Shown piece by piece: positions 708-31,537 of a stretch of 32,000 nt of DNA. The stretch's first letter is position 1. Every line of letters starts with the position of its first letter. This DNA comes from Caedibacter taeniospiralis (GTDB lineage: Bacteria > Pseudomonadota > Gammaproteobacteria > Francisellales > Francisellaceae), in contig NZ_PGGB02000007.1 of NCBI RefSeq assembly GCF_002803295.2, positions 9,365 through 41,364 on the forward strand. The letters are read 5' to 3'. Position numbers and translations under genes: made by a program. The notes under the pieces are model-generated. The model was given only the letters and a program-made list of their open reading frames with translations. It did no database searches and was not told the DNA's origin.

Positions 708-774
708 CTAAGTGTTCAACCTCAAATTTAAACTAAGCGTCATTGTAACAAACCACCTCGTAAGCGAAAATGCT

Positions 775-1982: not shown

Positions 1983-3503
1983 ATGACACAACAACACCCT
2001 CTCTCATCAACGATGAAATGGCTTATTACTGTCACGGTGATGCTTGCTGCAATGATCGAGATTATTGATACCACCATCGTCAATGTTGCCTTACAGGATA
2101 TGGCTGGCTCTCTTGGTGCAAGTACGGAAGAGATATCATGGGTAGTAACTTCTTACATCGTATCTGCTGCCATTTGCATGCCATTGACAGGTTTCTTTGT
2201 CCGCACCATGGGTCGACGACGCTTGCTACTCATTAACATTGTTGGGTTTTTAATTTTTTCAATGCTCTGTGGCTTAGCAAGCTCTTTGAACGAAATGGTT
2301 TTCTTTAGAATTATGCAGGGAATTTTTGGCTCCTCTTTAGTCCCTCTGTCTCAATATGTGCTAAGAGATACCTTTCCTCCTAACGAACAAGTAAAAGCCA
2401 TGGCTGTTTGGGGAGTAGGCATTATGGCAGCACCTGTACTTGGTCCAACACTGGGTGGCTACATTACTGATTGGATGAACTGGCGTTGGATCTTTTATAT
2501 CAATATCCCAGTCTGTATTATTGCAATCATTATGGTCATCATGTTTATTAGTGAAACCAATCGTGAAAGACTCAATATAGATTGGATTGGTTTGGGACTG
2601 ATGACATTAACTATTGCCACCTTACAAATTTTTCTTGATCGAGGTAACAATGACGGCTGGCTGTCTTCACAGTTTATTGTTGCCATGCTGATGTTTTGGG
2701 TGGTTACAGGTCTCATCTTTATTTTCCGTGGCTGGTTTAATCCTAAAAATATTCTTAATTTACATTTATTCAAAGATAGAAACTATGCAGCCTCTTGCGT
2801 TCTTCTGGTCTTTTACACCACAGGGATCTTTGGATTAATGACGGTTCAACCTCTTATTATGCAAGGGATTATGAATTACTCTGCGGCTTTATCTGGTGAG
2901 CTTATGATGCCTCGGGGTATCGCCGCAGCAATTGCAATGATGACGATCGCACCACTTGCTAAGCGGATTGATCTACGAATTATTATTTTCTTAGGCATCG
3001 TGATTACCGCCTATGGCAATTATCTTTACGCTCAAATCCCACTGATGAGCGACACCTGGAACTTAATGTATCCTGGGATTATTCAAGGCATTGGCATGGG
3101 TTTTTTCTTTGTTCCTGTTTCAACCATGGCACTGCAAACCTTAAAACCACATGATCTTGCTGAGGGTAGCGGAATGTTTAGCTTTTTTAGAAACTTAGGG
3201 ACCTCAGTAGGCACATCGGTGATGATTACGGTATTAACTCAACAAGCACAAGTCGCCTGGCACAGCATGATTAAATACATTAATCCCAGCAATCCAAACT
3301 ACCAACTCTGGTTACAACACATTAACTGGCAAGCTCAGGATCCCACAACACTTAGCGTAATCGCCCAAAGCATCAGCACACAAGCCAATATCATCGCTTT
3401 TGATGATGTCGCTTATTTGTCTTATTTGTTACTCACCCTTTCCATTCCATTTATCTTTATGCTTAAAAAACCCACAAGTACAGGGCTTAGCATGGATCAT
3501 TAA
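1983..3503 (+). CDS. DHA2-family MFS multidrug efflux permease (EmrB/QacA-like, 14-TM type)
   Basis: 506 aa and highly hydrophobic. The N-terminal IDTTIVNVALQDMAGSLGAS motif and overall layout are typical of EmrB-type transporters. No emrA-like partner is adjacent. Confidence 0.85.
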   Translation: MTQQHPLSSTMKWLITVTVMLAAMIEIIDTTIVNVALQDMAGSLGASTEEISWVVTSYIVSAAICMPLTGFFVRTMGRRRLLLINIVGFLIFSMLCGLASSLNEMVFFRIMQGIFGSSLVPLSQYVLRDTFPPNEQVKAMAVWGVGIMAAPVLGPTLGGYITDWMNWRWIFYINIPVCIIAIIMVIMFISETNRERLNIDWIGLGLMTLTIATLQIFLDRGNNDGWLSSQFIVAMLMFWVVTGLIFIFRGWFNPKNILNLHLFKDRNYAASCVLLVFYTTGIFGLMTVQPLIMQGIMNYSAALSGELMMPRGIAAAIAMMTIAPLAKRIDLRIIIFLGIVITAYGNYLYAQIPLMSDTWNLMYPGIIQGIGMGFFFVPVSTMALQTLKPHDLAEGSGMFSFFRNLGTSVGTSVMITVLTQQAQVAWHSMIKYINPSNPNYQLWLQHINWQAQDPTTLSVIAQSISTQANIIAFDDVAYLSYLLLTLSIPFIFMLKKPTSTGLSMDH

Positions 3504-3670: not shown

Positions 3671-6487
3671 ATGCAGTTTGATGAATTTTGCCAAAGCTTT
3701 GAGTTGACACACTTAGATATAAAAGTTTCAGCAAAATTATTGAATACTTTTAACACCAGCTGCTTTTTTGCTCGTTTTATCCAACAACATCCCCAGCTTC
3801 TCAAGCATACCGATTGGTTTCTCATTGATGACATCAGTGTTTTGCAACAAGAAATTAAAGCTCTTTTTGCACAGAGCAAAAGTTATGATGAGCTTGCAAA
3901 GACTTTACGCAACTATCGCCAACAAGTGCATGCCAAACTTGTGTTCCAACAGCATCATAAGATTGCCAACTTTGAGACTATTGCCGAGACTATTTCTGCT
4001 ATAGCAAAGCATATTTTATTTTACGCACAACAATATTTATTAAAAAAACTAAGTGAAACTAAAACCCTCCATAAACTCCCGCAAGATCTCGGTATCATCA
4101 CCATGGGAAAGCTCGGTGGAAATGAGCTTAACTTCTCTTCTGATATTGACCTTGTGTTCATCCAGGTAAATAACGACCCATTGACAGACCACCTTGGTAA
4201 AACCTATAGCGCCATGCGTTTTTATACTGAGCTTGGTCAAAAGCTTATTGCCTTACTTAATGAAACGACAATCGATGGATTTGTTTATCGAGTTGATATG
4301 CGTTTGCGTCCCTTTGGTGAGGGCGCACCTTTAGTCATCGATATAGAAAGCTTTAAACATTATCTTATGAATCATGCGCGAGCTTGGGAGCGCTATGCTT
4401 ATATTAAAGGCGACATTTTACATCCATCTCATCAGGTTAAAGAGATATTAGATCACATGATCAAGCAGTTTGTTTATCGCCATTACCATGACTATCGCAT
4501 GCTGAATGCTATTCGTGAGATGAAACAAAAAATCTTATCCGAAATGAAACAGGTAAACTTAACAGACAACATAAAATTAGGTCGTGGTGGCATTCGTGAA
4601 ATCGAGTTTATCTGTCAATGCTATCAGTTGATTTATGGCGGTCAAAATATCACTTTGCAACATCGTAAGCTAAAACAAGCACTGCGTTCATTAACCCATG
4701 CTGAGGTTATTTCTGTCGATACTCAAAAATATCTCTATCAGCACTATGTTTTTTTGCGCAACGTTGAAAATGCCCTGCAAATGTTTGATGATCAACAAAC
4801 GCATCAGCTGCCAAGCAGCAAGCACACACAGAACGCCATCGCCTGCTTATGCGGTTTTGATGACTGGCAAATGCTTATCACACAAATCACCCAGACAAGG
4901 GAAAAAGTGGCAGGGCTTTTTGACAAACTCACCCGCTTTAACCTCCATAACGTTGAGCAAATGCAAGACTCAGCAATCTCTGCCACCTTGATGACGGACA
5001 ACACTCTCCCCGCCTGCGCTTATAATCATACGGAAATTAAGGCTTGTACAAATAATTCGCCCAAGCGTATCGGTGTGAGTAATCAGTGTCACACTCACAC
5101 TCACACTCACAACTCACACTTAGCAATTGGCGGAAATATAGTCACTGCCGAAATTAACAACTTCTTTGCTGAACATATCCTTGCTCAAGAAGTTCTACCC
5201 GCTATTGAAGACTTAATTAACCTGTGTGTAGAGCGCTATCCACAGCTTTTAACCAATCTACTAAAGCTGCTGCATAACTTGAGCAAACGACAAACTTATT
5301 TATTTTTGTTCCTTGAATATCGCTCACATCATCTGGATTTTTTGACCTTACTCAATCAAGGCGCACGAATCGTAGAAATACTAACGGAACACCCGTTTTT
5401 ACTTGAGCGCGCATTCATATACAAACACCATGACGAAGTCTATATCGATATTGCTTATCTTCGCAGCAAACTGTACAGACACCTCCAAGCTATTAACCTT
5501 GAGGATGTCGAGGCTTTCTTAGAATGTTTGCGTCGATTTAAGCTTGAACAGATATTTAACATTATCGTCAGTGAATCACAAGGGCACATATCCTTAATGG
5601 AAGCCAGTGATTTATTCAGTCATCTGGCAACCGTTTTAATTGAAATTGCCCTTGATGGAGCATGGCGTGAGATTTTTCGATATGTCGATATAACATCCGA
5701 TCTACAGCAAGCTTATCGAGACTCTCTAGCGGTCATTGCCTATGGCAAACTTGGCGGGCTTGAGCTCAGTGTTGCCTCTGACTTGGATCTGGTGTTTATT
5801 CATGATAAAACCCATACGGAATTATCCTCACGCTTTTTTGTGCGCGCTGTGCAAAAATTTGTCCATTTTATGCAAATTAAAACCTATCACGGCGCCCTGT
5901 ACGATATTGATTTACGCCTGCGTCCTGAGGGAGATAATGGTTTTATTGCCCCAGGTTTTGATCGCTATGAGGAATATCTTTATCACTCTGCCTGGACTTG
6001 GGAGCACCAGGCATTAACACGCGCACGCTTCATTTGTGGAGCCTCCCGTATTCAACAGAAATTTGATCAACTGCGTACTCAAGTTTTGTGTCAATCTCGT
6101 GCGCTTCCCGCGCTCAAAAAAGATATTCGTGAGATGCGCCAAAAAATGCGCACTCATCTACTTAAAGCTCCTTCGCATCTATTTGATTTAAAACAAAGCC
6201 CAGGTGCTATGGTGGATATTGAGTTTATTGCCCAGTTTTTTGCGCTTTATTATAGCCATAAAGTTCCTGCAATAGGTTACTACAGCGACAGTATTCGCAT
6301 TATCCAAACCATCGAATCTGCACAGTTACTTGATACTAAAACGGCAAACGTGCTGATTGATAACTATTGCTATTACCGTGATTTAGGGTTTAAATGCTAC
6401 CTTCGCAAACAAGAAGCCGTTGTTCCCTTAGATACTTGTAAACAGAGAATGTTAGAAGTACAGGAAATATGGAGCAATCTATTTTAG
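3671..6487 (+). CDS. glnE: Bifunctional glutamine synthetase adenylyltransferase/adenylyl-removing enzyme, carrying a 39-codon in-frame repeat insertion
   Basis: 938 aa with two nucleotidyltransferase modules: GKLGGNELNFSSDIDLVF at ~4100 and GKLGGLELSVASDLDLVF at ~5750. Each is followed by Y.VD.RLRP.G. This is the GlnE architecture. Confidence 0.9.
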   Translation: MQFDEFCQSFELTHLDIKVSAKLLNTFNTSCFFARFIQQHPQLLKHTDWFLIDDISVLQQEIKALFAQSKSYDELAKTLRNYRQQVHAKLVFQQHHKIANFETIAETISAIAKHILFYAQQYLLKKLSETKTLHKLPQDLGIITMGKLGGNELNFSSDIDLVFIQVNNDPLTDHLGKTYSAMRFYTELGQKLIALLNETTIDGFVYRVDMRLRPFGEGAPLVIDIESFKHYLMNHARAWERYAYIKGDILHPSHQVKEILDHMIKQFVYRHYHDYRMLNAIREMKQKILSEMKQVNLTDNIKLGRGGIREIEFICQCYQLIYGGQNITLQHRKLKQALRSLTHAEVISVDTQKYLYQHYVFLRNVENALQMFDDQQTHQLPSSKHTQNAIACLCGFDDWQMLITQITQTREKVAGLFDKLTRFNLHNVEQMQDSAISATLMTDNTLPACAYNHTEIKACTNNSPKRIGVSNQCHTHTHTHNSHLAIGGNIVTAEINNFFAEHILAQEVLPAIEDLINLCVERYPQLLTNLLKLLHNLSKRQTYLFLFLEYRSHHLDFLTLLNQGARIVEILTEHPFLLERAFIYKHHDEVYIDIAYLRSKLYRHLQAINLEDVEAFLECLRRFKLEQIFNIIVSESQGHISLMEASDLFSHLATVLIEIALDGAWREIFRYVDITSDLQQAYRDSLAVIAYGKLGGLELSVASDLDLVFIHDKTHTELSSRFFVRAVQKFVHFMQIKTYHGALYDIDLRLRPEGDNGFIAPGFDRYEEYLYHSAWTWEHQALTRARFICGASRIQQKFDQLRTQVLCQSRALPALKKDIREMRQKMRTHLLKAPSHLFDLKQSPGAMVDIEFIAQFFALYYSHKVPAIGYYSDSIRIIQTIESAQLLDTKTANVLIDNYCYYRDLGFKCYLRKQEAVVPLDTCKQRMLEVQEIWSNLF
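5041..5149. mobile_element. MITE-like palindromic element, copy 2 (109 bp), inside the glnE reading frame
   Basis: Same element as 775-877 and 31265-31365. It is flanked by a perfect 8-bp direct repeat GAAATTAA (5033-5040 and 5150-5157). It translates in the glnE frame as KACTNNSPKRIGVSNQCHTHTHTHNSHLAIGGNIVTAEI. Confidence 0.85.
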
Positions 6488-6529
6488 CGTAAGTTCAAAG
6501 CAAGTATTTTCAAGTGGTTCCAGGTCTTT

Positions 6530-6590
6530 ACTTCTCCCTTGATGGGAGAAGTCGCCAAAACGTGTTTTGGCGGATGAGGGAGAATTTTTT
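6530..6590 (+). terminator. Compound GC-rich stem-loops followed by a T-run, downstream of glnE
   Basis: ACTTCTCCC-TTGAT-GGGAGAAGT (6530-6552), then CGCCAAAAC-GT-GTTTTGGCG (6553-6572), then GATGAGGGAGAATTTTTT. TCTCCC (6533-6538) can also pair with GGGAGA (6578-6583) directly before the T6 run. Confidence 0.5.
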
Positions 6591-6668: not shown

Positions 6669-9600
6669 ATGAGTAGAAAGATGTTACAAATTTTTGGCAA
6701 TAACGCACTATCTTCGTTTGATCAACAAAGAATATTATCTAAATTGCAAGGCATCATCCCTGGTATTGAACAGGTTCAGGCGGAATATATTCACTTTATT
6801 GAGTCTAAAGAGACACTCACAGAAGATGCCATGGGCAAACTCAAGGCACTTTTAACTTACGGTGACAAGGGTGTACTGACCGAGAAAACAGGACAGGCAA
6901 TTATTGTCACACCGCGCTTAGGAACGATTTCACCCTGGTCATCGAAAGCTACCGATATCGCGCATAACTGTGGACTTAAAGAGATTATACGTATCGAGCG
7001 TGGCATCGTTTATTACCTCCAAAGCAAACACTCTTTGGAGCAGAATACTTTAACGCAACTTACGGCAACGTTGCACGATCGCATGATGCAAAGCGTTACC
7101 TTTTCTCTGGCTGAAACCAATCCCTTCACAAACACACATGCAGAAGGAAAACTACGCATTGTTCCCTTGTTAGCCCAAGGGCGCATAGCCTTAGAGAAAA
7201 TCAATGATGAGCTTGGTCTTGCTTTATCCAACGATGAAATTGATTATTTGCAGACTGGATTTCTTGAGCTTAATCGCGATCCCACCGATGTTGAACTGAT
7301 GATGTTTGCACAAGCTAATTCTGAACATTGTCGCCATAAAATCTTTAGAGCCGATTGGATTATCGATGCTCAAGCACAGACACACGGATTGTTTGCAATG
7401 ATTAAAAATACCTATGAACACCATAAAGAAAATATCCTGTCCGCCTATCATGACAATGCTGCGGTTATTGCAGGTTATGCCGCTGAGCGTTTGCAGCGCC
7501 ATAAAGATGGACTCTATCACTTTAAGCGTGAGCCTATTCATATTCAAATCAAAGTGGAAACACATAATCACCCCACGGCGATTGCACCATACCCAGGGGC
7601 AGCAACGGGAGCAGGAGGCGAGATCCGTGATGAGGGCGCTACTGGACTTGGCGCTAAGCCAAAGGCTGGACTCACAGGCTACACCGTATCAAACTTAAAC
7701 ATTCCTGATGATATACAAGCCTGGGAACTCCCTTATGGCAAACCTGATCGCATTCGTTCAGCGCTTGATATTATGATTGAAGCACCTTTGGGAGGAGCTG
7801 CTTTCAACAACGAATTTGGGCGCCCCAATTTGTGCGGCTATTTCCGCACGTTTGAGCGATACTATAACGGCGAAGTTTGGGGCTACCATAAACCTATTAT
7901 GATTGCTGGAGGTTATGGCAATATCAAAGAAGAACATATTGAAAAACGTAAAATTCCCGCGGGTGCCAAAATTATTGTCCTGGGCGGACCAGGCATGTTA
8001 ATTGGCTTAGGTGGCGGAGCTGCTTCTTCCGTGAATGCAGGGGACTTACACGAAACACTTGATTTTGCCTCAGTTCAACGCGATAACGCTGAGATCGAGC
8101 GTCGCGCACAAGAAGTCATCGATAGTTGCTGGTCAATGGGACTGGATAACCCGATCATCAGCATTCACGATGTGGGTGCTGGTGGTTTATCCAATGCGCT
8201 ACCCGAGCTTGTTGTTGATTGTGAGCGCGGTGCCATTTTTGATCTTAACAAAATTGGAGTTGCCGAAAAAGGCTTATCCCCTTTAGAAATATGGTGTAAT
8301 GAATCTCAAGAGCGTTATGTTCTCGCTATTTCAGCGGATGATTTGGCTACGTTTGACCAGATTGCTCGGCGTGAGCGTTGCCCATACAGCATCGTTGGTG
8401 AAGCAACCACAGAACAGATGCTTATTCTTAAAGATTCAAACTCCACCGTTGATCTAATCCATATGCCTTTATCTTTGTTACTGGGCAAGGCGCCTAAAAC
8501 AGTAAAAAATGTCACAACAACCGCCCATGCTTATAGCAATTGGGACTACAGTAAAATCAATTTGACTGATGCAGCAAAACGCATCTTGCGTTTACCTGCT
8601 GTTGGCAGTAAGAAGTTTTTAATTACCATAGGCGATCGCAGCGTTGGTGGGATGACCCAACGCGATCAGATGGTGGGACCATGGCAAATTCCTGTGGCTG
8701 ATGTTGCCGTAACAGCATCAAGCTTTACCGACTATCACGGCGAAGCCATGGCAATGGGCGAGCGCCCAATTTTGGCGATGATGAACCCTCAAGCCGCTGC
8801 AAGAATCACTATAGGTGAAGCGATTACCAATATTGCCGCGGCCTATATCTACCATTTATCTGATGTTAAGCTTTCAGCCAACTGGATGGCAGCCTCTTCA
8901 CATCCAGGCGAGGATGCAAGACTTTATGAAATGGTTAAAACGGCTGGGTTGGAATTTTGTCCAGCACTGGATCTCACCATCCCTGTTGGTAAAGATTCCT
9001 TATCGATGAAAACCACATGGCGTGACGAAGACGGCGAAAAGGCGGTTACCTCTCCTGTCTCTTTAATTGTCACGGCCTTCGCCCCTGTGCAGGATATTCG
9101 TCGTACACTGACCCCACAATTGCGTCTGGCATTTGAAACTGATCTTATTTTCATTGATCTTGGTTTAGGCAAAAACCGTTTAGGTGGCTCTTCATTTGCT
9201 CAAGTTTATAACGAGTTTGGCAATGAAACACCAGATATTGAACCCGTACTATTGCAGAGCTTCTTTGCCGCCATTCACAAACTGGTTAAAGAAGATAAAA
9301 TTTTAGCCTATCACGATCGCTCCGATGGTGGTCTATTTACCACCCTGTGTGAAATGATGTTTGCGGCAAAATGCGGACTTGACGTCGATATCGATGCCTT
9401 GGGTGACGATCCTCATGCTGTGCTTTTTAACGAAGAGCTGGGGGCTGTGATTCAAGTAAGAAATACCGATTGCGACATCGTGATGCAGATGCTTGCAAGC
9501 TTTCAACTCAAAGCACATCACATTGGTAGACCCAATGCTTCAACAGCCGATGCCAAATTGATCATCAGCCAGGATATTGATGAGCTATTTTCCATGACGC

Positions 9601-10568
9601 GCGCCGAACTGCAGACACTTTGGTCACAAACCTCCTATCAAATCCAGAGAATGCGTGATAATGCGAGGTGTGCCGATGAGGAACATGAGCTGATCAATCG
9701 GCTTAATGATCACGGTTTATTTGCCCAGGTTGCATATGACTGCAAAGAAAATATTGCAGCAGCTTACCTTAATTTTGGTATTAAACCCAAAGTTGCTATT
9801 TTGCGCGAACAAGGGGTCAACAGCAATAACGAAATGGCAGCTGCGTTTACCCTAAGCGGTTTTGATGCCATTGATGTACATATGACTGATTTACAAAACA
9901 ATCGTATTAACCTGAACGATTTCAAGGGCCTTGCTGCCTGTGGCGGATTTTCTTATGGTGACGTACTTGGTGCGGGAGGCGGCTGGGCAAAATCGATTTT
10001 ATTTAATCCTAAGCTTTTAGATCAATTTGCTGCATTTTTTGCTCGTCCTGATACCTTCAGTGTTGGTATGTGTAATGGCTGTCAGATGTTATCGCAATTA
10101 AAAGACATTATTCCAGGGGCAACACACTGGCCTCGCTTTGTCAGAAACCTCTCTGAGCAATTTGAAGGACGCTTATCAATGGTCGAAGTGCTTAAAAGCC
10201 CTTCAATTGTCTTTGCAGGCATGGATGGCTTAAAAATGCCCATCGTTGTTTCACATGCTGAGGGGCGAACGCAGTATCGCGATGCCAATGACTTAAACAC
10301 TTTAATTGCCAATAAGCAAACCGTGATGCGTTTTATCGACAGCCACAGCAATCCCACCGAGTATTATCCACTTAATCCTAATGGCTCTAAAGACGGTTTC
10401 ACGAGTTTCACCTCTACTGACGGGCGCGCCACAATCATGATGCCACATCCTGAACGTGTCTTTAGATTAGTACAAATGTCATGGTATCCTGCGGACTGGA
10501 AAAATAAAGATATCGAATACTCACCATGGATGCGTTTATTTATGAATGCACGCAAGTGGGTTGGGTAA
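6669..10568 (+). CDS. purL: Phosphoribosylformylglycinamidine (FGAM) synthase, large single-chain form
   Basis: 1299 aa. It has the N-terminal, FGAM-synthase and C-terminal glutaminase parts (GVCNGCQML-like [13 protein letters not shown]). The start may be the second ATG at 6681 ([13 protein letters not shown]). Confidence 0.95.
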
Positions 10569-23984: not shown

Positions 23985-24103
23985 AGAATTTTGGGGTTAT
24001 CTATAGCAACTCCAAGTCTTCTGAAAAATCACTCAAAGTAACAAAAGTGTAAATATTCAGACCCTCCACCTATTGAATGCGCCCCACGCAAGATCATTTT
24101 TTT

Positions 24104-28040: not shown

Positions 28041-28135
28041 GCGATTGCTCCTTTTTGTCGAGTAGACATTTCTGTTTCTCCTATTTATATTTGTTTATAT
28101 TCAATACAATGTGAAGACGCACAATGCCCCTCACA

Positions 28136-28168
28136 GAACCGTACTTGTAGATTTCCCACATACGGCTC
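28136..28168 (-). ncRNA. Group II intron catalytic domain V
   Basis: GAGCCGUAUGUGGGAAAUCUACAAGUACGGUUC. It has the AGC triad, a lower helix GAGCCGUAU/GUACGGUUC identical to the classic yeast ai5-gamma DV as I recall it, a 2-nt AA bulge and a GAAA-type loop. Confidence 0.85.
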
Positions 28169-28179
28169 TTCAACTTAAC

Positions 28180-29514
28180 TCACAGCGCTACCAACGTGTA
28201 AAATATGTGATTGATTCGTGGTCGCGGTAACGGATGGCGCTCTACATATTTATTAAAGTCCCACCAGTTCATTTTCCGCTTCTGGCTTCTTCGATTTAAC
28301 CACTTCAGCGTCTGTCTCATGGCTATCGAATAATACTTCGCTATCGAGGGGTAGTTTCCACTCACTCCGTAATATTCAAAATGCCCTCTTAGCTTCGCTT
28401 TCAGTATTTTCCACCACTCTTTTGTCGGGAGTACATTCCTAATCGATTTCAGCCACAAGTTCAAATCTTTGCACTTGGCTCGAAACTTCTTAGCGCTCGT
28501 TTTCCGACCCAGTTTGAAATACCCCTTTCTTGTCTTATCACAAAAATGGGTAAATCCTAGAAAATCAAACGTATTCGCCTTGCGTCCAGCATTCAAAGCA
28601 TTCAGCTTCTCAAACCGTCCAAAGCTTATGTTCCGACTCTTCTCTGGATGAAGCTGTAGTTCATGCTTGTTAAATCTATTCGCCAATGCCCGCTCAATCT
28701 TGCGGGCATCTTCCTGATACTGTATCAAGCACACAAAGTCATCTGCATACCTCACCAGCCTGCAAAATCCTTCAACGTGCTGCTTTACCGTATCTTCAAA
28801 CCATTTATCTAATACATAATGCAAAAATATATTCGCCAACATCGGACTTAATATACTCCCTTGTGGCGTACCTTTCTCCGTGTCGATCAATACCCCTTTA
28901 TCTATGTACCCCGCCCTTAAAAAGCAGTCTATCAGATGTAGCAAACTCGTATCCTTCACCCGTATCTTCACAAAGTCCTTCAGTTTCTCGTGCGATACGT
29001 TATCGAAGAACCCCTTTATATCCGCTTCCACCAAATGGTTCACAGGTTGGGTCATGATCGCCTTATCGACTTCATTTAACGCCTGATGAGTATTCCTTCC
29101 TGGTCTAAACCCATACGAGCATTCCAGAAAGTCCTGTTCATATATGCTTTGCAGAATCAGCATTATACCGCTCTCAACAATCTTGTTCTCAATTGCAGAG
29201 ATACCTAACGGGCGGCTTTCACCATTTCCTTTAGGGATATATACCCTTCTACTTGGCATTGGCTTAAATGTCTTGCGCTTTAATCGCATGACCAGATTCT
29301 CTATCTTATCCGCTACGTCCACGCCATATTCTTGCCAACTTACTTTGTCTATTCCTACCGCCTTGTTTCTATCAAGTCCATAGTAGCAATAGCTGAGAAA
29401 CTCCGCGTCAAGTAAATGAGCCAGGCTCGTAAACTCAAAACTTCGATTCCCTCGCGCGCACTCTGCTATAGAAGACAACTTCAACAATGTTTTATTCAAC
29501 TCTGCGTTTGACAT
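28180..29514 (-). CDS. Group II intron reverse transcriptase/maturase (no endonuclease domain)
   Basis: RT blocks are present, including RPLGISAIENKIV, GTPQGSILSPMLANIFL and RYADDFV (YADD), plus an X/maturase region FLGF...RGHFEYYGVSGN. It ends without an HNH/En domain. The ATG is at 29514; the track start at 29517 is a GTG. Confidence 0.9.
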   Translation of the reverse strand: MSNAELNKTLLKLSSIAECARGNRSFEFTSLAHLLDAEFLSYCYYGLDRNKAVGIDKVSWQEYGVDVADKIENLVMRLKRKTFKPMPSRRVYIPKGNGESRPLGISAIENKIVESGIMLILQSIYEQDFLECSYGFRPGRNTHQALNEVDKAIMTQPVNHLVEADIKGFFDNVSHEKLKDFVKIRVKDTSLLHLIDCFLRAGYIDKGVLIDTEKGTPQGSILSPMLANIFLHYVLDKWFEDTVKQHVEGFCRLVRYADDFVCLIQYQEDARKIERALANRFNKHELQLHPEKSRNISFGRFEKLNALNAGRKANTFDFLGFTHFCDKTRKGYFKLGRKTSAKKFRAKCKDLNLWLKSIRNVLPTKEWWKILKAKLRGHFEYYGVSGNYPSIAKYYSIAMRQTLKWLNRRSQKRKMNWWDFNKYVERHPLPRPRINHIFYTLVAL

Positions 29515-30200
29515 CACTCAAACTATCCTCTTGCGTTAAATTGCCAGCCCCTTCGAGTGGATTAGCCTCTGACCCTTCTCAGAGCTTCAATCTATCCTCG
29601 ATAGGCATTACCCTACCTACTCCTCTACTACGAACCAGTCCGACTACCTTGCTAAACCATCACCTCGTTTCTTCAACTTGCATGACAGCATTCAGAAATA
29701 GCAAGGTTCTCCCAAGTTCCAAAACAATCAGTTCATCTACCCGCTACGGACTCAGACCCCGACACCTCCGCGCATACTCGCCTGTTTACTTTGGGTTGTG
29801 CCAAACTTTTTTAAAAAAAAAAAAAAAACACATGCTCTAGTTTCGTATACAGCAGTTCTGATTTCAGGCAAATGAAAACCCTGATCAGGTGTGACGTTGA
29901 TTTATTACGGGGCTCAATACCTTCACTTGCGTTGTGGCTGATAGACCGCCCTTGCTACAGCTTCATACGCTGCGAGCCATGGACCTATGTGTAGTTCGGT
30001 TCCAGACCGGTGGCTAACCTTTATCTGGGCTGGATTGTCCAGCTTGATTGCCTTAGCTTTGCTTGGCGCACTCATAATTTTCTCCTGGGTTTGATTGATA
30101 ATTAACGTTTAGTTGTGTGGATGATAATGCCTTCAAAACGATCACATAAGAGCAAAATTTGGTCAATTGTGATAAAAATTACCATTGCTTATTTTTAACC

Positions 30201-31184: not shown

Positions 31185-31264
31185 AACAGTGAGAGATATA
31201 GCTCAAAGCTTTAAGATTTACAAGTCAAGTCAAAGCATAATAGGGCGCATTTCAGAGAAATCTT

Positions 31265-31365
31265 GGCTTGTGCAAATAATTCGCCCAAGCGTGTCGGTGT
31301 GAGTAATCAGTGTCCGTCACACTGACAACTCACAATTAGTGATGGGCGTCAATATAGTCATCACC
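31265..31365. mobile_element. MITE-like palindromic element, copy 3 (101 bp), upstream of the lysR start
   Basis: Same element as copies 1 and 2. It is flanked by a perfect 8-bp direct repeat GAAATCTT (31257-31264 and 31366-31373). Confidence 0.85.
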
Positions 31366-31537
31366 GAAATCTTCCATTACAAAATGGTCGTTTATTAGCA
31401 AAAATTTGGTAAATGTTATAAGAAGCTCTTTTATCAAAATGGCGCACAGATGCACTGGCAATTTCCTCCCAAGATCGCTACCATGTCCCAAAGCTTCTAT
31501 TTTACGTGGCATCACCTATGGCTAAGAAAATTTATAA

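Follow-up and report, generated by a model that had tools for sequence, protein, structure and literature searches.

We analysed a 32,000-nt stretch of Caedibacter taeniospiralis DNA (contig NZ_PGGB02000007.1, positions 9,365 to 41,364), hereafter the window, in which the gene glnE carries a short repeated element within its reading frame. The open reading frame (ORF) of glnE (3671-6487, + strand) encodes an intact 938-aa bifunctional glutamine synthetase adenylyltransferase/adenylyl-removing enzyme, identified from the ORF list, Pfam, PDB alignment and RefSeq. Pfam detected PF03710 (GlnE) twice (E = 3e-108) and PF08335 (GlnD_UR_UTase) twice, so that a helical domain of the GlnD_UR_UTase type comes after each of the two nucleotidyltransferase domains. 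RefSeq WP_100550996.1 is exactly the GlnE protein of the window and is annotated as intact. The residues that do not vary among 73 aligned GlnE proteins are kept, among them the G-K-L-G-G and D-x-D stretches of both modules.

An earlier note, made from the sequence alone, had described the insertion in glnE as a 109-bp MITE (short for miniature inverted-repeat transposable element) enclosed by a perfect 8-bp direct repeat, in frame, free of stops and placed between the two nucleotidyltransferase modules. The length, the direct repeat, the frame, the lack of stops and the position were borne out. The repeat GAAATTAA was found at 5033-5040 and 5150-5157 on the + strand, around the element at 5041-5149. 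Measured from one repeat start to the other, the insertion adds a net 117 bp or 39 codons. The ORF 3671-6487 reads through it, and the inserted peptide KACTNNSPKRIGVSNQCHTHTHTHNSHLAIGGNIVTAEI corresponds to GlnE residues 457-495. Excision of the insert gives HTEINNFFAEHIL, and the empty glnE site would read ...ACGGAAATTAACAAC....

The position between the modules was supported by the Pfam matches, the PDB alignments and an AlphaFold model. PDB 1v4a aligned to residues 74-420 and 3k7d to residues 524-907, indicating that the insert lies in the unalignable linker between the regions matched by the two E. coli halves; because this linker region is without alignment, the insertion site was not placeable on E. 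coli GlnE residues by sequence. Q-linkers have reportedly been described in E. coli GlnE by Jaggi et al. (1997). A literature search on the GlnE Q-linker returned a single match, which was about NifA.

Comparison with orthologous GlnE proteins

The nearest named relatives of the window GlnE, from Cysteiniphilum and Fangia (Fastidiosibacteraceae), are 48-62% identical, 899-910 aa long and without the insert. The 39 aa were also missing from the Cysteiniphilum-like sequences P0002-P0005 (60-62% identical) and from more distant orthologues. The insert is therefore lineage-specific, a point on which the earlier interpretation depended. The motif EI[DN]xFF occurs once in the orthologues, at the target; the window protein has E-I-K ... 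insert ... E-I-N-N-F-F, in which the E-I-N encoded by the right target-site duplication aligns with this motif. In Cysteiniphilum DNA (L002) the site reads ATT GAA ATA GAT CAG TTT TTC, with a single target-like GAAATAGA.

We compared the length of the linker between the modules, taken as F417-R540 in the window, among the 73 GlnE sequences. It ranged from 75 to 123 aa. The window linker is the longest because of the element: it has 123 aa, compared with 84-89 in the nearest relatives (cf. 123 - 39).

The element belongs to a family of dispersed repeats

The copy in glnE (nhmmer E = 4e-32) starts with GGCTTGTACAAATAATTCGCCC and finishes with GGCGGAAATATAGTCACTGCC. Both of the further copies that the earlier note had placed in intergenic DNA were found there, on the + strand. 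Intergenic copy 1 (767-885 with flanks, element 775-877) lies about 15 bp 3' of the mlaA stop codon and is flanked by the imperfect repeats AAAATGCT/AAAATGGC. Intergenic copy 3 (31257-31373 with flanks) has a 101-bp element (31265-31365) within a perfect 8-bp duplication, GAAATCTT, and lies 80 bp 5' of a gene for a LysR-type regulator. The similarity between copies is bounded exactly by GGCTT and a terminal GCC or ACC, and the flanks are otherwise unrelated. The number of chance matches expected for a 27-nt probe from the element was 0. A divergent family member is reduced to its final ~30 nt at ~24050-24079 on the - strand, as identified by sequence comparison and an nhmmer match in the near-identical contig L009, which holds a fuller version (2542-2623). 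Relative to the window at ~24050-24085, L009 has ~745 bp extra (2542-3296), which include most of the divergent copy and two small ORFs of 93 and 107 aa.

Scanning metagenomes with the conserved core of the element yielded seven contigs, five of which represent the three copies of the window in nearly identical form. The locus in L003 and L007 is new; it is located 9 bp 3' of a TrbI-like gene and flanked by imperfect CGTACTTT/CGTACCTTT. Shortened or divergent copies occur in L004 (two) and L009. Counted over the window and the further contigs of the same or a near-identical organism, the family has at least five well-conserved loci, one of them genic, and two degenerate loci; target duplications of 8 bp flank most of them. 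Of the four intergenic copies of full length, three are near the end or start of a gene. The canonical element, represented by L003, L005 and copy 1, is 103 bp long, and copies range from 97 to 109 bp.

As is typical of MITEs, the element is small and without a transposase gene, is present in several dispersed copies and has target duplications of fixed length and variable sequence. The four target duplications, each of about 8 bp, are perfect in two cases (GAAATTAA and GAAATCTT) and imperfect in the others (AAAATGCT/AAAATGGC and CGTACTTT/CGTACCTTT). No ORF is possible in the element beyond the read-through peptide. As single-stranded DNA, the 103-nt consensus folds over its whole length (z = -4.3), with GTGTGAGT/ACTCACAC as the hairpin at its centre. 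The glnE copy has this central hairpin too, and its RNA fold gave z = -3.6. Promoter and terminator scans around the insert gave background levels.

Search for relatives of the element

The core pattern TTCGCCCAAG-N7-GTGTGAGTAATCA gave no exact match in 185,579 species genomes, a collection that seemingly does not include the source genome. The end pattern GGCTTNNNCAAATRATTCGCC, also searched exactly in these genomes, gave 64 matches in unrelated taxa, none of which extended usefully or had a matching right end; all 64 are chance matches. A blastn search of the element against 72,556 plasmids returned only one 28-nt chance match, in guaB. Rfam, searched with the whole window, matched none of the element copies and reported only a group II intron elsewhere. 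The earlier note had not recognised the element as a described family. The species genomes, plasmids and Rfam likewise yielded no described family to which it belongs, and on these searches the family appears to be undescribed and confined to the host lineage.

Several identities were considered and set aside. L004 was examined as the possible end of a full-length insertion sequence (IS) and turned out to be a shortened intergenic copy without a transposase ORF. Integron attC sites and repetitive extragenic palindromic (REP) sequences were dropped because, by inspection, the element ends have neither GTTRRRY/RYYYAAC nor GTAG signatures.

Length alleles and reading frame

The same insertion site, element and duplication were found in three further independent assemblies: L005 (NCBI metagenome contig JACCDZ011266985.1) and L001 and L074 (JGI records). 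The insertion is thus shared by ancestry among the four assemblies, whose agreement rules out misassembly. The earlier note had named a frameshift or stop in glnE as an observation that would overturn its reading; the ORF is intact in all four.

The length of the insert varies. The element is 109 bp in the window (net 39 codons), 103 bp in L005, a 99.5% identical contig (net 37 codons), and 97 bp in L001 and L074, which represent a second lineage ~96% identical in glnE (net 35 codons). The figure of exactly 39 codons given previously therefore holds for the window allele and not in general. Alignments located the variation in a (CACACT)x3 tract encoding (His-Thr)n (5090-5107, + strand), which has three units in the window, two in L005 and one in L001 and L074. 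The three alleles are accounted for by slippage of this hexamer in whole units (12 or 6 bp). The original insertion was probably that of a canonical copy, with 103 + 8 = 111 bp or 37 codons.

We compared the glnE frame with the equivalent frame of the other copies. Both intergenic copies of the window contain stops in this frame, as reported before: copy 1 has a TAG at element nt 5-7, which is a point mutation, and copy 3 a TGA, which follows a 2-nt deletion. Both stops reflect secondary decay. The statement that the genic copy alone is open is correct within the window and does not extend to the family, since this frame is equally free of stops in the intergenic L003 copy and in the consensus of the family. 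The consensus has one stop-free frame of six, and shuffled sequences of the same composition have a mean of 1.0; the idea of an element designed for coding was rejected on this ground. Since the consensus and L003 are open too, and the consensus at the level of chance, the openness of the genic copy fails as evidence of selection at insertion. A canonical copy preserves the frame wherever it is inserted, and read-through would be the outcome in roughly one of six insertions within genes. The glnE copy would be translated in its sole stop-free frame.

Predicted structure and selection on glnE

An AlphaFold2 model of GlnE, based on the 73-sequence alignment, had a mean predicted local distance difference test score (pLDDT) of 89.3 and a predicted template modelling score of 0.84. 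The sole segment with pLDDT below 50 comprises residues 433-486 and covers most of the insert, whose last ~10 residues were modelled as the start of a helix (485-501). The model thus places the insert mostly in a low-confidence segment between the domains, consistent with the interdomain loop for which the earlier note had proposed structure prediction as a check.

Selection was assessed by comparing the window with L001. The ratio of non-synonymous to synonymous substitution rates (dN/dS) was 0.38 for glnE overall (Fisher p = 6e-6 versus neutrality), 0.40 for its N-terminal half (p = 0.003) and 0.30 for its C-terminal half, 3' of the insert (p = 0.0004). Purifying selection on both halves implies that, from the separation of the lineages onwards, it has been important for translation to continue through the insert. 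For comparison, dN/dS was 0.079 in purL (dS 0.285) and 0.08 in a major facilitator superfamily (MFS) gene. All five substitutions in the insert are non-synonymous and none is synonymous, with a dN of 0.064 versus a glnE dS of 0.075. The reading frame is kept and the peptide sequence is drifting. In support of this, between the same two lineages, copy 1 (compared with its L074 orthologue) differs by indels of 1, 1 and 13 nt and the genic copy by one 12-nt indel, a comparison of small numbers in which hexamer slippage itself favours multiples of six.

Genes next to glnE and other features of the window

In the second lineage, a 396-aa purT lies between glnE and purL (L001 3588-4790; L074 12831-14021), where the window has ~100 bp (6484-6587). 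The gene is lost or moved in the window lineage. Identity between the window and the second lineage falls from ~96-97% in glnE to ~93% in purL (6669-10568) across the purT indel, and this step, together with that in dS, suggests a recombination boundary between glnE and purL. A 35-nt inverted repeat with 80% complementarity (6495-6529/11495-11529, 5 kb apart) brackets purL and the gene for 5-formyltetrahydrofolate cyclo-ligase.

A 52-nt segment at 1763-1814, bounded by a GGAT repeat, is missing from the 99.8%-identical L008. The flank next to it matches its first 16 nt in reverse complement, which creates a 26-nt inverted repeat (1753-1778/1812-1837) that sits between mlaA and the gene of an MFS transporter. 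The group II intron reported by Rfam is located on the - strand at 28057-30038. It was detected through RF02005 (D1-D4, 29747-30038) and RF00029 (domains V/VI, 28057-28170), and the two matches bracket a 445-aa reverse-transcriptase ORF (28180-29517).

Origin of the insertion and alternative explanations

We conclude that a MITE-like palindromic element very probably inserted in frame into the glnE linker and has been tolerated there. A non-autonomous element of the canonical 103 bp would have been mobilised in trans by a transposase that duplicates 8-bp targets; a parent IS would end in GGCTTGTGCAAATAATTCGCCC...GGGCGGAAATATAGTCACTGCC and be flanked by 8-bp duplications. The element would have entered glnE at GAAATTAA in the sole stop-free orientation and frame of the six, and the frame would have been kept because element and duplication together make 37 whole codons. 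The target would have been a poorly conserved, disordered stretch between the N-terminal adenylyl-removing module and the remainder of the protein, where the enzyme could tolerate an extra loop. H. seropedicae GlnE without its N-terminal domain is still an active adenylyltransferase (bioRxiv 10.64898/2026.09.02.748916), which, with the modular build of GlnE, argues that an insertion between the modules is tolerable. Fixation would have preceded the split of two lineages of the uncultured, Fastidiosibacteraceae-like host. Since then, the insert would have behaved as unconstrained linker, changing length in 6-bp slippage steps only, and the catalytic modules would have stayed under purifying selection.

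Several observations weigh against this interpretation or parts of it. The nearest GlnE proteins without the insert are only ~60% identical to that of the window, and none of the available genomes is that of a close relative with an empty site. Three of the four target duplications open with (G/A)AAAT (window positions 767-774, 5033-5040 and 31257-31264), which suggests that certain target sites are preferred or that the element ends have a structure not recognised so far. The terminal inverted repeats are weak: besides the GGC/GCC tips, only subterminal TTCGCCC/GGGCGGAA pairs, which by eye makes ~14 of 23 positions, and an automated repeat search of the element reported only the central hairpin and no terminal inverted repeats. 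For this reason, MITE-like palindromic repeat is the accurate label. The species-genome and plasmid scans turned up no autonomous IS whose ends match the element. Finally, glnE exceeds the neighbouring purL 4.5-fold in its ratio of non-synonymous to synonymous changes (p = 5e-10), and some relaxation of constraint on glnE may have contributed to it.

The last observation bears on the possibility that the insertion impaired the enzyme and that glnE is an early pseudogene still without a stop. Its dN/dS is far above those of purL and the MFS gene in the same genome pair, and the adjacent purT was lost from the window lineage. However, the ratio is significantly below 1 in both halves of the gene, the ORF is intact in the four assemblies, no residue that is constant among the 73 GlnE proteins has been lost and the model is confident outside the linker. 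Moreover, glnE and purL have similar dN (0.0285 and 0.0226), and the high ratio of glnE arises mainly because its dS is four-fold lower (0.075 vs 0.285). Local recombination or a reduced time to coalescence seems a better account of this low dS than decay. We therefore regard decay of glnE as very unlikely.

Alternatively, the insert may have been co-opted, with its His/Cys-rich loop (CHTHTHTHNSH) or the longer linker altering GlnE regulation. Such a loop might bind metal or tune communication between the modules, and hexamer slippage might serve as a length switch. The insert is open in four of four assemblies, covering two lineages and a near-identical strain, its length polymorphism is located in the His-Thr tract and its final ~10 residues were modelled as the start of helix 485-501. 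However, the purely non-synonymous substitutions, with an insert dN close to the dS of the gene, form a pattern of neutral drift, and pLDDT stays below 50 up to residue 486. The openness of the consensus in the glnE frame is not above chance level, and selection against frameshifts in a needed gene suffices to explain the open frame. Co-option is thus very unlikely. Quite improbable, too, is a broader form of this idea, in which an undescribed frame-neutral element family of the Francisella-related Fastidiosibacteraceae repeatedly donates protein loops, as palindromic elements do in Rickettsia, and the slippage-prone His-Thr tract is a tunable linker or metal site in nitrogen signalling. An assembly artefact or chimera, or a lineage-specific expansion of the linker unrelated to transposition, is hardly credible. 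Although repeats are often misassembled and the GlnE linker varies naturally in length, four records that were assembled independently and differ from one another in other respects share these junctions, and the perfect 8-bp duplication exactly adjoins the stretch that is similar in the other copies, for which the chance expectation of a repeat match was nil.

If a tolerated insertion is the correct interpretation, glnE offers a datable case outside Rickettsia of selfish DNA absorbed by an essential-type regulatory enzyme without destroying it. Following a genic and an intergenic copy across the same pair of lineages, with only 6n-bp indels in the genic one and a freely drifting peptide, separates selection to keep the frame from selection to keep the peptide. 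For annotators, such genes are not to be called pseudogenes or split. The CACACT hexamer tract is usable as a strain marker.

Comparison with known systems

The architecture of the host protein is like that of E. coli GlnE (1V4A, residues 1-440; 3K7D, residues 449-946), with two homologous modules joined by a poorly conserved linker. Among known repeats, the element resembles ERIC/IRU, Correia (NEMIS) and other MITEs in its size class, potential to form a whole-length hairpin, target duplications, mostly intergenic location and now and then a fusion in frame with ORFs (PMC3184786, PMC10969869), and differs from them in being a different sequence family. The target duplication gives a further distinction from two of these groups, because the element has an 8-bp duplication. 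Correia and ERIC elements duplicate TA.

QMITE2 of Coxiella burnetii is described in PMC5896051 as 150-190 bp long, with variable direct repeats of 7-11 nt, and mostly located in 3' untranslated regions or intergenic DNA. QMITE2 and QMITE1 are, like the glnE-type element, small non-autonomous palindromic repeats of an intracellular-type gammaproteobacterium, and QMITE2 shares with it a location near gene ends and copies older than the divergence of strains. In that paper, BLASTn found no QMITE1 orthologues in other genomes, and the overlaps of QMITE with functional genes described there are C-terminal, unlike the internal in-frame insertion in glnE. Compared by description, the glnE-type element is also shorter (97-109 bp) and by inspection has no GTAG REP motif.

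The earlier note had likened the insertion to Rickettsia palindromic elements (RPE; Ogata et al. 2000, 2002), for which the review PMC10969869 gives 44 integrations within R. conorii genes. This likeness holds for the outcome and not for membership. In both cases a short palindromic repeat lies in frame in a housekeeping gene and adds a peptide at a place where the fold would tolerate it, here the predicted disordered interdomain linker. The host of the glnE-type element is a Fastidiosibacteraceae-like gammaproteobacterium and not Rickettsia, only one of at least five loci is genic, the peptide is not conserved and the 8-bp target duplications are clear; the distinction is drawn by host and pattern. 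We thus take the element not to be an RPE and the resemblance to be an analogy of outcome. A 2024 review calls it 'not unusual' for an intragenic MITE to be fused in frame to a host ORF, RPE being the extreme and ERIC, BOX, QMITE1 and the MITEs of Anabaena being further examples (PMC10969869). With such fusions documented in several bacteria, the glnE case adds little new mechanism.

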